DNA from: Mobula hypostoma
Lineage: Eukaryota
DNA: 64,000 nucleotides
NCBI RefSeq assembly: GCF_963921235.1
Contig: NC_086097.1
Coordinates: forward strand, 12,152,001 to 12,216,000
Direction of reading: 5' to 3'
Each line of letters opens with the position of its first letter. Position 1 is the first letter of the stretch. Both the position numbers and the translations under genes were made by a program. Below are positions 52,986-57,590 of this stretch, one piece after another. A model generated the notes under the pieces. It was given only the letters and a program-made list of their open reading frames with translations. It did no database searches and was not told where the DNA came from.

Positions 52986-54900
52986 GTACATTCACAGGCA
53001 TCTCCTTGGTTTCTATCTACTATCTCTTCTTTTGTTGCACGTTAAAACCTGTTTTACTTCGGTTTGGTGAAAGGTCATTAACTTTCGATTTCTCTTTCCA
53101 CAAAATGTTGTGTGCCTTCAGCATTTTTATTTAGTTTTGCTTTGTAAATGTGATAAATGTTTCTGGCATTGCGTTCTAACTTTTATGTCAAAGGAACGTC
53201 CTCATAGTAGTTAGATGTGAGTTTGGGTAGACAGAGATTAGGGAGCAACAAGCAATCTTCTGCAATAAACAATCTATTGTAAGAACTCAGCCGTTTAATC
53301 AGTAACTTTGAGAGGAAGAAATTGTCAGTGCTTCGGAATGAAACTCTGCATCAGGATTAAGAGAGGAGACATAAGATGGCCACTATAAAGAGGAGAAGGA
53401 GAGTGGAATTTGAGATGATTGGTGAGCAGAGAAGAGGTGTAAGGTTCAATGCTATGGTACCATAGTGGTTAGCCCGATGCTATGACGACTCATAGCATCG
53501 GAGTTCTGAGTTCAATTCCGAAGCTGTCTGTAAGAAACTCCTAAGCCTTGCAGTGAGTGCATGGTTTTCCTTCTGGTGCTCTGGTTTCTTCCCACATTCC
53601 AAGTTCCTCCATCATTTTGGGTGTGTTATTCACTAAATAGTTTCTTTCTCTTTGTCAAATCATTCATCTAAAAATGTCTCTCAATTCCATCTAGTAGGGT
53701 AGTTCGTCTTTGATTAGGTTTGGGTTAAGTAGGTGGGTTGCTGGGTTGGAAGCACCTATTCCGCACTGTAGCTCTAAATAAATAAGTAAGTAAATAAATA
53801 ATATAATAGGTAAGGAGCGTTAGTGGAACGGAGCATGGATGGAATTGAGAGACATTTTTAGATGAATGATTTGACAAAGAGAAAGAAACTATTTCGTGAA
53901 TAACACACCCAAAATGATGGAGGAACTTAGCAAGTTAGGCGACATCAATGGAAATTAATAAACAGTCAGCATTGTGGGCTGAGATCCTTCACTCAATTTG
54001 TTGATTGAATCTATATGAATGAAGTTTTGCATTGTATGTATGACTCACCGTACCTGTGCATGGATGTACCTAATAAAGTGGCCACTGAGTGTATATTATT
54101 GCACTTCATAAGAAAGAGTGAGGTTTCATTTTCATTAAGTGTATATGTCAATGAGTATTGCCTCGAGTTTAATTTAGTCTATTTGATGAACAATCTTGCA
54201 TGGACACTTTCTTCTACAAAAGGGATTGAGGAGCTAATAGGGAGCTGTGGTTCAGATTTGATAGAGAAAATATCCCTTCTGGAAGATGAATTCACAGCAA
54301 TGGTGGATAAATGGAAGATTTCCACCACCTCCTGCTTTACCCTTACTTTCTGTCCTGTACAATTTCCAGGTCACGCAGCCATGCTGAGTAATTGAACTCT
54401 GATAATCAATCTGCATGGGTAAATCAATTCACAGCCAGTAAGAATGGTATTGCTACAGGGATAGGTGGGGTGTGTGAACACGTGGTGCTTGCTGCCTTTC
54501 GGACTGATTGAAGCAAAGGGAATTCACAGATTTTAGAATCAGAATCAGGTTTAATATCACTAGCATATGCCATGAACATTTTGTTATGAGGCAGCAGTAC
54601 ATTGCAATATATGATAATACAAACTATAAATTGCAGTAAGAAGCATAGATATAGTAAAAAGTTAAATTAAGTAGTGCAAAAAGAGAAAAAAATAAGTATT
54701 GGTCATGAGTTCAATGTCCACTCAGAAATCTAACAGCAGAAGCTATTCCTGAATTGTTGAGTTTGTACCTTAAGTCTCCTGTACCTCATTCTTGATGGTA
54801 GCGATGAGAAGAGGGTATGTCCTGGATGATGGGCGTCCTTAATGATGGATGCTGTTCAAGATCAAGGTCAAGATTCGAGAATTAAGGTTCAAAATTGTTT

Positions 54901-57590
54901 TTTCTTACAGAAACATCTGCATGATGCTAAGCTAGGGCACATCATCAGTGATATTACCTGGGGTCATCAGGTGTTTCGGGTCTTTCAACATCATACACCC
55001 TCGCCCAGGCGACCCGACCGGGGTTGATCAGACCCCGGTCTGTGCCCTAGCAGCAACCCACAGATCTGCCCTCCTTATCCAAAGCCATCTTGACGCTTTC
55101 TCTGCTGCATCTGTGTTGGTAGAAATGACTCTCCTTCTTCTCTCTCCAGTGATTCCAAGTGCAGTATGTACTTTGCAGAGCGACTGGCCTGCAAAGCCAC
55201 GACACCCGACCTCCACGGGCCAACACTTTGCTCTCCAGCCTCTTCTTTGGCAGTTGTTCTTCAGATCCTCATTCTTCGCTCTTTTCCACTCGTAGGCCTC
55301 CTCCATGCGTTCTTCCCATGGCACGGTAAGCTCAAGCATAAGAACGTGCTTCGATGAGTCGGGTCACAACACAATGTCGGGCCGCAATGTAGTCTCTCTA
55401 ATGTGGGAGGAAACTGCAGCTGCTTTCCCAGGTCTGCTTTCAGCTTCCAGTCCTGTGCAATGAAGAGCAACCTGGTTGCTTTCTGGTGTTCTGTTGGTCT
55501 TTCCCCCTCTTTGACAAAGCAGATGCTATTCTCGACCGGACTTGTTTTCCGGCAGATGTTAAGGGAGCTGCAGATTGTCTCAGCAATTGTCCGGAGGACC
55601 TGGTCATGGTGCCACCACTGATAACGGCCATCGGCAAGAGCTCTGGGGCAGCAGCTCAGAATATGCTCTAGCATACCGGTCTTCTCACAGAGGGGGCAAG
55701 CTGGTCGTTCTGCAAGGCTCCAGCAGTGCAGGTTGGATGGGCTAGGAAGGACGTCATAAACAGCCTGGATAAGGAACTTGATGGGGTGTGGATCCACCTT
55801 CCAGAGATCATTCCATGTGATCTTTCGCTCGATCACTTGCTCCCATTTGGTCCAGGCTCCTTGCTGTTTCATTGCCACTGCTCTGCTGGTCCTCTCCTCC
55901 TCCACAGCTGCCATTACTTCATCCTGAACCAGTTCTCATTGCTCTTTCCCTTGTACTTTGTCAAAATGGGGGACTTCAAGGCTTCCAGGTCCAACTCTTC
56001 CCTTGGCGACTGCCCCCACCAGCACTTTGTGGTGCATTCGTGCCTCAGCTTCATCCACTGCAGCTTCTGCTCTCCGCTCTCTTCCAGTTCTCACTACCAC
56101 TCTTGCTCCGGCAACCTTTGGATCTGAAGATTCCCGGAACTGCAGCACCTCTCTTACTCGCCAAACCTTGAACTCCTCCTCGATGGATTTCAGGGGGAGC
56201 CTCAGTTTGTAGTTATTCCTGTACAGAGCGATGCTGCTGATGTTGCTTAGTGAACCAGCCATCTTCGCAGGAACCAGCTGACTACCCTCTCTAATTCAGC
56301 AACAGTGGAAATTGGAAACTCACAGAGAAGCAGTGGCCAGAGGATTCTTGTTTGTATACCGTGCTGGTAAATCTATGCCTTAAACCACCCTGGAATGCCA
56401 GTCCTGTCAACCTCTCGCAACCATTGTTCAAACTCCCCACTGGTATTTCTTATTGCCGCCTTATCTCTGAGTGTGGCATCAAACCTCTTCCCAAGACTTT
56501 TAACAGGGTTCTCTGTGATGGTAGGAATTGGAATGTCCTCAGTGGAGAAACAAAATTTCTCCTGTGCTCTCCCCTTCTTAAGCACCACAGATCTTGATTT
56601 TGCAGGCTTAAAGGACATCCTTGCCCACCTCATCAACCTTTCCAGCCCCTTAAGAATCCACCTAACACCAGGCACTGACTCCATAGTGATAGTCAGATCA
56701 TCCATGAAGGCTCGTGTTGGTGGTTGGCGGATCCCAGATCTTGACCTCGGGCCTCGACACTCTGGCTCTGCAGATTTTACCAGCATGATCATTGCCAGGG
56801 CAAAAAGGATGACTGAGATGGTGCAGCCTGTGATAATACCGATCTCCACCCTGCACCAGTCTGATGTCATTGGCCCTGTTGAGACTCTCAAGTGGAACTC
56901 GTTGTGGTAGTCCATAAGGAGGCCTCTGATTCCTTCAGGAACATGGTGCCTCCTCAGAGCGCCTGCAACAACCTTGTGGGGGATTGATCCATAAGCATTG
57001 GCCAAATCCAACCACAAAACCACTAAGTCACCCTTATTCTTTCTGGCCTCTCTCAGGAGCTGTGTGATGACTCCAGTGTACTCCAAGCAGCCTGAGACCC
57101 TTGGAACACCACTCTTCTGGGTAGAGGTGTCAATGTAAGGCACTTCACCACCATGCTGAGGAAGATCTTCCCTTCAACACTCAGCAAGGATATTATCCTG
57201 TACTGGCTGACGTTCTCAGAGTTCTCTTCTTTTGGAATCCACACTCTGTTTGCATACTTCCATTGCTTGGGCCCTTTGCCTCTCTTCCAGACGACCTTGA
57301 GGATTCTCCACAGCCGCCGGAGAAGCCGGGGGCAGTGTTTGTAGATGTTGTACGTGGTGCCACTCGGACCAGGAGCTGAGCCAGCTCAGGCTTTCTTGAC
57401 TACTTGCTGAACCTCCTTGAAGAGAGGCTCTCGAAGGTCGAAAGCCTCTGTTGCTTCTGTGGGGGCGATGAGGGCATCACAGTCTCCCAGTTCAGCTTCT
57501 CTGTCTGGGTTACTGAAGGTGCTTCGAAGGTGGTGGTCCGTCTATTCCTTTGTGCAGGACAGCTTTCCACTTCTCTTCTGACCCAGCAGC
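54901..57590 (-). mobile_element. HERO-clade (R2 group, RLE-type) non-LTR retrotransposon, 5'-truncated and frameshifted
   Basis: RT motifs WLDLANAYGSIPH, GIITGCTISVILF, AFMDD; zinc knuckle CPLC..HILSCC; HDQVL; TLRPDIV and LELTVPWEE RLE motifs; stop at 55028; imperfect 45-bp flanking duplication. Confidence 0.9.
54935..55016 (-). ncRNA. Candidate strand-permuted hammerhead-like RNA with kink-turn in the HERO 3' UTR
   Basis: Core GUA, GAAA and CUGAUGA each correctly flanked by the complementary arms of stems I and III; canonical k-turn sequence extending stem III; stem II weak or supplied by an upstream strand. Confidence 0.6.

Follow-up and report, generated by a model that had tools for sequence, protein, structure and literature searches.

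A candidate pseudoknotted, permuted hammerhead ribozyme in the conserved 3'-terminal RNA domain of a LINE from Mobula hypostoma

A decayed long interspersed nuclear element (LINE) lies on the minus strand of a 64,000-nucleotide stretch of the Mobula hypostoma contig NC_086097.1 (positions 12,152,001 to 12,216,000, hereafter the window), and it ends in a 3'-terminal RNA domain at about 55050-54932. Such a structured 3' end, directly after the open reading frame (ORF) or overlapping it, is deeply conserved in a clade of LINEs with a restriction-like endonuclease motif. We lean towards reading it as a permuted hammerhead ribozyme able to cut after a GUH triplet and gated by translation through two further helices (P1 and P2), perhaps also by the protein of the element.

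The host element is recognizable in spite of its decay. Its reverse transcriptase (RT) domain lies at 56373-57173 (Pfam RVT_1, E 3e-12), with a weak zf-RVT match, and we recognized by eye a CCHC motif and a PD..E.T..K endonuclease motif in the ORF. Pfam gives RVT_1 only for this LINE; the HERO label used in the initial annotation, which first drew attention to hammerhead-like strands at this place, is provisional. On re-reading the sequence we found every motif that it listed on the minus strand with identical letters, which confirms that the motifs and their arrangement are real. It had also placed them just 3' of the ORF stop, and correctly so: the last open frame (55363..55028) ends with a UGA at 55030-55028, within the loop of P2. 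As a consequence, the P1 5' strand and half of P2 encode the ORF tail, ..GTQAGV. The features of the locus are the following, from the ORF to the 3' end of the element.

55028..57173, minus strand: pieces of the decayed LINE ORF (RT, CCHC and restriction-like endonuclease motif), from reading frames, Pfam and inspection by eye.
55050-55041, minus strand: P1 5' strand, CUAGGGCACA, inside the ORF; pairs with 54941-54932 in the minimum-free-energy (MFE) fold.
55040-55016, minus strand: P2 hairpin of 9 bp with the loop CUGAUCA at 55031-55025, from the MFE fold and covariation.
55015-55011, minus strand: GGGUC, proposed stem II 5' strand (G10.1-C10.5), whose pseudoknot pairing with GACCC at 54982-54978 is suggested by complementarity.
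55010-55004, minus strand: P3 5' strand, GCCUGGG; pairs with 54962-54956; equivalent of helix 'I' of type-SGC hammerheads.
55003-55001, minus strand: C-G-A, candidate non-bulged strand of a kink-turn (k-turn; positions 3n, 2n and 1n), from its sequence signature.
55000-54995, minus strand: stem III 5' strand, GGGUGU, ending in G16.2 and U16.1, from covariation.
54994, minus strand: H17, here A; predicted cut 54994|54993, by analogy with hammerheads.
54993-54987, minus strand: stem I 5' strand, UGAUGUU; putative pseudoknot pairing with 54955-54949.
54986-54983, minus strand: GAAA linker that connects stems I and II at their distal ends, from sequence.
54982-54978, minus strand: stem II 3' strand, GACCC, ending in C11.1, from sequence.
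54977-54969, minus strand: G12, A13 and A14, then the stem III 3' strand ACACCU (A15.1, C15.2 onward), from sequence and majority letters.
54968-54963, minus strand: GAU-GA-C, candidate bulged strand of the k-turn (L1-L3, G1b, A2b and 3b), from sequence.
54962-54956, minus strand: P3 3' strand, CCCAGGU, from covariation.
54955-54949, minus strand: stem I 3' strand, AAUAUCA, in other copies AACAUCA or UACAUCA, from the sequence and its copies.
54948-54942, minus strand: CUGAUGA, core positions C3-A9, followed by UGUGCCC, from sequence and genome counts.
54941-54932, minus strand: P1 3' strand, UGUGCCCUAG, directly after A9, from the MFE fold and covariation.
54931-54898, minus strand: 3' tail with a small hairpin, GCAUC/GAUGU at 54927-54913, ending ..UGUAAGAAAA, from comparison of copies.

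In the predicted nested fold, P3 (GCCUGGG/CCCAGGU) and stem III (GGGUGU/ACACCU) are a single bent hairpin whose 20-nt loop holds UGAUGUU, GAAA, GACCC and GAA. The MFE fold adds two helices that were absent from the initial annotation, the 10-bp P1 (CUAGGGCACA/UGUGCCCUAG) and the hairpin P2. The window copy has all 13 of the 13 hammerhead core letters, with no spacer between them and the three helices; the complementary strands of stems I and II lie right beside the core, and A9 is followed by a strand that enters P1 instead of stem II. We infer that stems I and II form as pseudoknots. The upstream GGGUC had been put forward as the partner of GACCC, and it does offer five perfect pairs. In every family described below the helices meet in a four-way junction free of gaps (A9|U-P1, P1|P2, P2|G10.1 and C11.1|G12). 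The element also extends past the predicted cut, as had been noticed: copies terminate at ..UGUAAGAAAA near 54898, which is 96 nt beyond 54994|54993.

The window copy is itself a decayed one, with three private letters relative to 29 other copies of its own family (family A). Its A55039 is G in all 29, its U54953 is C in 28 and its U54966 is C in 21. With C at 54953, stem I has seven Watson-Crick pairs (UGAUGUU/AACAUCA). The third difference means that the k-turn strand reads GACGA in most copies, and the GAUGA of the window is a case of CpG decay.

The domain is unlikely to be an accident of sequence composition. The 151-nt stretch around the site folds at -63.4 kcal/mol (z = -5.2), and none of 200 shuffles was equally stable. 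We searched with a strict descriptor in the order site strand, GAAA strand, CUGANGA strand (S-G-C), which asked for a 6-bp stem III ending in U, then H, a stem I of at least 6 bp, a linker of 2-6 nt, a 5-nt strand, GAAA, a stem I partner abutting CUGANGA and a 5-nt stem II partner. On both strands it matched the window once, at this site, and none of 300 block-shuffled windows. The 21-mer core occurs a single time in the window even when up to three mismatches are allowed (0 expected). A search of Rfam around the site, with E values up to 10, matched no family, and no match in the whole window reached the gathering score. A structured LINE 3' untranslated region (UTR) in which the joining strands merely happen to spell hammerhead motifs is one alternative, and it gains something from the fact that such motifs had been sought by eye and that the stem II criterion is weak, a 5-nt partner being easily found. 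It is nevertheless very unlikely, given the 300 shuffled windows without a match, the exact letters kept across lineages whose proteins are about 50% identical, and a likeness to an experimentally validated topology that includes helix 'I' and the sequence of stem I.

Other copies of the domain provide most of the evidence. We searched 3.48 Gb of genome, and a first search returned 2030 candidates. A pattern that omitted the window's own A at 54994 found 94 sites (72 GUC, 11 GUG and 11 GUU) and none in the reversed control; 30 loci were fetched, and they yielded further families, B, C, D and E, with different P1, P2 and tails. The domain is thus present in at least five lineages of this genome. 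Loci of the B-E type are also LINEs, with C-terminal ORFs 40-63% identical to that of the window (tblastn), and the strand order, the three stems abutting the core and the k-turn-like loop, all of them described in the initial annotation, are kept across this range of protein identity. A 24-nt central stretch is identical to the letter among lineages with proteins only about half identical. The motif ACAUCACUGANGAUGUG has 2896 copies in the genome. Of the first 100 core-motif sites in the list, about 80 belong to lineage C, which is recognizable by CUGAAGA and is the most abundant lineage; its UAAUGUU subfamily (L110-L125, L128) has multiplied despite carrying an uncompensated change.

Two further samples came from outside these patterns. 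A metagenome scan with the 21-mer core gave 16 loci, 12 of which are real copies, several with an ORF end upstream. The other four (L091, L097, L099 and L102) have the exact 21-mer in unrelated sequence, three of them being identical; we judged them chance matches and excluded them from all counts. We then anchored a sample on protein instead of RNA, with the ORF tail of L103, a metagenome locus, as query; of 9384 candidates, 150 were scored and 40 fetched. The domain lies directly 3' of the ORF in all 40 of these LINE copies. Both central blocks are letter-perfect in only 11 of the 40, because the copies are dead, as expected.

The core is conserved in a way that follows the hammerhead. At every core position the majority letter of the 40 protein-anchored copies is that of the hammerhead, and CUGANGA is retained in all lineages although it was absent from the retrieval patterns (the A-omitting genome pattern and the metagenome 21-mer). 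Position N7 is U in lineages A, B and D, A in C and G in the metagenome copy L100; it is U in 30, A in 6, C in 2 and G in 1 of the protein-anchored copies, and, for the first 100 of the 2896 sites in the list, A in 80, U in 19 and C in 1. At H17, 11 of 11 metagenome copies carry A or C; the protein-anchored copies have A 33 times, C 6 times and G once. GAAAC and GU(A/C), which provide the pairs A15.1-U16.1 and C15.2-G16.2, are kept even where adjacent stem III pairs change. Contigs of four sequencing runs showed five variants at a frequency of at least 10% in the core strands and stems (A54994>C, G54992>A, A54981>G, G54986>U in the linker, and A54945>G), and none at 54975-54977. The last of the five, which changes A6 to G, was found in two contigs in each of two organisms; we rejected it as a real variant, as it is only at the level of decay in the genome (53 copies with G6, or 1.8%, against 2896 with A6). 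Family-level variation within the core strands is limited to N7 and H17, positions that hammerheads leave free.

Covariation supports most of the helices. The alignment holds 67 sequences (the window, its own families A-E and nine metagenome copies) with a pseudoknotted structure string; one strand of each pseudoknot stem was fixed by the retrieval patterns, and the rows are decayed copies. Changes on both sides were found at 8 of 10 pairs of P1, 8 of 9 of P2, 4 of 7 of P3 and 3 of 6 of stem III. Paired cells make up 91.5%, against 31-44% when the partner is slid, and 0 of 500 shuffles reach any of these measures, a test that is inflated by related rows. The closing pair of P2 covaries (AU 36, GC 20, GU 6). 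Compensated forms of P1 include CUAGGGCACA/UGUGCCCUAG, CUGGGACACA/UGUGUCCCAG, UCUGGACACA/UGUGUCCAGA and CUGAACACA/UGUGUUCAG, and those of stem III include GGGUGU/ACACCU, GGGCGU/ACGUCC, GGGGGU/ACCCCC and GGACGU/ACGUCC. Contig variants from four other organisms agree for P1, P2 and P3. As for the stem II pseudoknot, GGGUC is present in 26 of the 40 protein-anchored copies, and A54981>G preserves a wobble with U55012.

P3 and stem III are joined by an internal loop of a familiar kind. The k-turn consensus, known from Kt-7, the U4 5' stem-loop and box C/D RNAs, consists of a helix, a 3-nt bulge, tandem G.A/A.G pairs and a second helix, with a variable 3b.3n pair. The letters C-GA and GAY-GA-C of the LINE carry this signature, and both flanking helices covary, which makes the loop a good candidate for a k-turn; the likeness consists in the sequence signature and its conservation. 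The four tandem G.A letters are kept in 31 (G), 39 (A), 36 (G) and 39 (A) of the 40 protein-anchored copies, with losses at CpG sites. A55001 is invariant in all 67 aligned sequences and is A in 39 of the 40, and families A-C retain GAYGA. Several combinations occur at the 3b.3n pair (C.C, U.C, G.U), position 55003 being C, U or G. A conserved k-turn-like loop, together with a CUGAUGA that occurs twice in the window copy, might also suggest a box C/D-like ribonucleoprotein, in which UGAUGA and CUGA-like boxes with the k-turn would recruit SNU13/15.5K. This is scarcely credible: 21 of 29 family copies have CUGACGA as their first box, no terminal stem unites the C and D boxes, there is no guide region, and the sole snoRNA match in Rfam lies elsewhere (54673-54769, E 9.9), far below threshold.

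The initial annotation held the order of the core strands to be undescribed, and in this it was mistaken. Eckert, Friedrich, Weinberg & Weinberg (NAR 2023, PMC10085705) break the hammerhead into the blocks S (site), G (GAAA) and C (CUGAnGA), and the order found here is that of their type SGC, with 583 natural sequences and five representatives that cleave at the predicted site in vitro. In this type, mutation of G in CUGAnGA abolishes cleavage, and disruption and rescue are reported for the three stems I to III as well as for a fourth helix (PMC10085705). Stems I and II are linked by about 3 nt, their 'other sides' are tied by a helix, and the far ends of helix 'I' and stem III are joined by 0-44 nt, a geometry that the authors find puzzling (PMC10085705). 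The 4-nt GAAA linker that had been proposed to join stems I and II in the LINE therefore has a counterpart in the short link of type SGC. In HRIMA-1, stem I (AUGUU/AACAU) is invariant and one unpaired U stands between A9 and G10.1 (PMC10085705). All type-SGC accessions but one come from IMG/M, and neither an animal genome nor a LINE is reported as a source (PMC10085705).

The likeness goes beyond strand order. As far as the published description of type SGC extends, the LINE domain shares with it the succession of site, GAAA and CUGAnGA, the same core letters and the location of P3, which like helix 'I' lies directly 5' of the stem I 3' strand and directly 3' of the stem II 5' strand. The AUGUU/AACAU of HRIMA-1 is identical to the distal 5 bp of the LINE stem I, and both stem I sequences are invariant. 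Both RNAs have an irregularity after A9, namely the unpaired U in HRIMA-1 and the exit of the chain in the LINE. The differences concern connectivity. In type SGC, as described there, the chain runs from A9 through the optional U, the stem II 5' strand and helix 'I', and then ends; in the LINE, helix 'I' (P3) continues into stem III, both of its strands passing through the putative k-turn, and the opening of the chain falls between A9 and G10.1, at the four-way junction built by P1 and P2, so that block C is split. CUGAUGA is followed by the P1 3' strand and not by the stem II 5' strand, whereas Eckert et al. assumed that block C cannot be interrupted (PMC10085705). Since block C is split, the LINE RNA is neither a strict member of type SGC nor of any of the six types of Eckert et al.; judged by its strands, it is type SGC circularly permuted, with the chain re-opened within block C. 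The two also differ in origin and in what is known of them. Type SGC, in the published account, comes from metatranscriptome or metagenome contigs that also carry hairpin ribozymes (viroid-like RNAs), whereas the LINE domain has thousands of genomic copies; cleavage is demonstrated for the former and predicted for the latter.

Type CSG, represented by two sequences that both cleave, is a circular permutation of S-G-C (PMC10085705). Going by that description, its stem II 5' strand is upstream of the site strand, as in the LINE, but it has the entire block (stem I 3' strand, CUGAnGA and stem II 5' strand) upstream, while in the LINE the stem II 5' strand stands there alone and the stem I 3' strand and CUGAUGA remain at the 3' end. 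What appears to be new is the closure by a k-turn, the opening between A9 and G10.1 at a gap-free four-way junction, and the animal LINE as host. In literature searches that covered few subscription journals, we found neither this connectivity nor any hammerhead described at the 3' end of a LINE.

Other ribozymes of retroelements are less similar. Classical hammerheads of types I-III occur in retroelements such as Penelope-like elements and retrozymes; they are nested three-way junctions without pseudoknots that frequently work as dimers or in tandem repeats, processing transcripts that are multimeric. They share the core and the retroelement host with the LINE domain, which by contrast is pseudoknotted and present as a single copy within an autonomous LINE, inside its 3' end. 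A fold of canonical type I, II or III was rejected here: CUGAUGA is followed by a strand whose partner is CUAGGGCACA, and the letters after CUAGGGCACA are G(A/G)CC or AGCU, not GAAA. Ribozymes of the hepatitis delta virus (HDV) type are found in R2, RTE and other LINEs, at the 5' end, where they free the element RNA from a co-transcript. They show self-cleavage in the same broad group of non-LTR (long terminal repeat) elements, with a different fold and chemical context, and the putative LINE site is 96 nt from the 3' end; an HDV-like topology was ruled out by the order of the helices. R2 is also a LINE with a restriction-like endonuclease, and its 3' UTR is the handle for target-primed reverse transcription; to our knowledge, no hammerhead core has been reported in it.

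The strand that should continue the core after A9 admits another interpretation. The RNA could be a plain type-SGC hammerhead with a switch, in which stem II is formed by the GUGUC or GUGCC that follows CUGAUGA-U, and P1 with GGGUC/GACCC is the alternative conformer, inactive or perhaps active, between which and the first fold the RNA would toggle. In lineages B-D, GUGUC forms four of five pairs with GACCC after a single-U spacer, the same spacer as described for HRIMA-1. The window family, on the other hand, forms only three of five, and GGGUC is invariant though outside the ORF and makes five perfect pairs. The pair 54937-55045 covaries from C-G to U-A (GC 27, AU 27), which supports P1 and not the alternative stem II. 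We consider a switch of this kind improbable.

A cleaving RNA might leave traces among its genomic copies, and we found one candidate. A family-A variant repeats exactly 63 nt (55056-54994), with the junction ..GGGUGUA|UUGCUG.. at the predicted bond, within an ambiguity of 1 nt. It occurs at four single loci (L074 and L087 among them) and in two arrays at the ends of LINE copies, of nine units (L107, G000:C22:58007850-58008600) and seven units (L108, G000:C55:3219100-3219700), and the units end in GUGUA. Neighbouring units share variants, which suggests growth of the arrays at the DNA level and unequal crossing-over. A similar duplication was not found in lineage B (one match, against 10 in reversed-pattern controls). 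Taken together, the DNA-level growth and the lack of a lineage B repeat mean that the junction counts as one founding event; its coincidence with the predicted cut, for which the chance is a few percent, is suggestive but no proof. Two of the 12 metagenome copies, L101 and L106, lose their upstream likeness at the cut or within 4 nt of it (..GUCAA|UGAUGUU.. and ..AUUGUC|UGAUGUU..); they are too few to weigh.

A number of results speak against a working hammerhead and have to be set beside its conserved core. The first concerns the pseudoknots. Across the 67 sequences, changes on both sides were seen at 0 of 7 pairs of stem I (92.6% of cells paired) and 0 of 5 of stem II (95.3%), and neither the 40 protein-anchored copies nor contigs from four other organisms showed a compensated change in either stem. 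The retrieval-pattern bias on these stems does not apply to the protein-anchored sample; the two stems are simply invariant. Conservation and covariation had been named as a check when the fold was proposed; the core letters, the k-turn and the covariation of stem III bear it out, and stems I and II lack covariation. Mismatches have also accumulated next to the core. G54992>A with C54950 unchanged leaves an A.C mismatch at pair 1.2-2.2, and in a subfamily of lineage C this change is uncompensated in 17 of 20 loci fetched from 28 matches; lineage C has in addition a U.C mismatch in stem III, and in most lineages U54955 loses the distal pair of stem I. In lineages B-D, GUGUC/GACCC provides an alternative stem II that competes with P1. 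Copies that start at the predicted cut are lacking: there were 0 of 29 among family-A copies anchored downstream, and of 42 genome matches in which G54996 is altered, at most three could be cut-start copies, the other 39 being plain point mutants. The cut would part the ORF from the last 96 nt, which every copy retains, so the benefit of a cut for copying is hard to see. Finally, no tested hammerhead has block C interrupted between A9 and G10.1, and the lack of any Rfam match at the site weighs on the same side.

Several of these observations would be expected of a non-catalytic scaffold, that is, a 3' UTR handle for the RT in target-primed reverse transcription, whose hammerhead letters are kept for a protein or for a tertiary fold. 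Such an RNA may descend from a ribozyme but no longer cut. In all 40 protein-anchored copies the domain follows the ORF immediately and forms the extreme 3' end; no copy has lost the 96 nt beyond the putative cut; the most prolific lineage has mismatches adjoining the core; stems I and II are invariant instead of covarying; and relatives such as R2 reportedly have a protein that binds pseudoknotted 3' UTR RNA (PMC12222951). Yet a scaffold leaves unexplained why variation is confined to N7 and H17 and why H17 avoids G, and it does not account for the identity of stem I with that described for HRIMA-1. Scaffold and ribozyme are compatible, not mutually exclusive. We regard a purely structural role as possible, though not as the probable answer.

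We return to the permuted hammerhead, which would be assembled as follows. The S strand would provide stem III 5', U16.1, H17 and stem I 5'; the G strand, stem II 3', GAAA and stem III 3'; the C strand, stem I 3' and then CUGAUGA. At their distal ends, stems I and II would be held together by the 4-nt linker and, on the opposite side, by helix P3; P3 would lead into stem III through the k-turn, and P1, made by the 5' and 3' ends, would form with P2 the four-way junction without unpaired nucleotides. The RNA would cut itself after GUH (54994|54993), and the pieces would stay clamped by P1, stem II, P3 and stem III (28 bp). The same domain would be the recognition site where the RT of the element starts copying. 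Ribosomes halting at the UGA in the P2 loop could hold P1 and P2, and hence the ribozyme, unfolded during translation. The stop codon is within the P2 loop in lineages A and B, in the metagenome copies L094, L100, L103, L104 and L105, and also in L047; that of lineage C is a UAG 27 nt earlier. The loop letters are invariant or nearly so in the 67-sequence alignment.

A more specific version, which we think doubtful, is that of a working hammerhead whose inseparable products amount to a reversible, protein- and translation-gated nick in the template of retrotransposition. Ribosomes at the UGA would keep the RNA unfolded, and the folded RNA would cut after GUH; the RT would cross the nick by end-to-end template jumping, or else select uncut RNA. 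The 63-nt tandem units ending exactly at GUA might then be fossils of template jumps. If so, this would be the first ribozyme acting inside a LINE 3' recognition domain and would add a seventh connectivity to the hammerheads, in which a four-way junction splits the CUGANGA block and a k-turn solves the distance problem noted for type SGC.

Cleavage in any form would have wider consequences. Hammerheads with a non-circular permutation of their strands, so far known from environmental viroid-like RNAs, would also exist in thousands of copies in an animal genome. The assumption that block C is uninterruptible would fall, and descriptor searches would turn out to be blind to a further topology. 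The k-turn would answer the puzzle raised by Eckert et al., namely what bridges the gap between the far ends of helix 'I' and stem III. A ribozyme would sit within the part of a LINE that its RT must recognize, with the stop codon inside the fold, which would provide testable links among translation, RNA cleavage and target-primed reverse transcription. Even without cleavage, the element is notable for a stretch of 24 nt that stays the same to the letter across diverged lineages.

Some features of individual copies are outside this argument. The UGAUCA of the P2 loop is a 6-nt palindrome and could kiss a second copy. One copy (L067) lacks the equivalent of window positions 55075-55015, that is, the ORF end, the P1 5' strand and P2; the same 61-nt skip is present in a contig of run X17, and this deletion form may be a propagated variant. 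In L138, the domain stops right after UGAUGUU and gives way to an (ACU)n microsatellite. The tail hairpin at 54927-54913 retains its arms and has a lineage-specific loop (AUGCA, GCA, AAUA or GUCA), and the tails beyond it differ by lineage.

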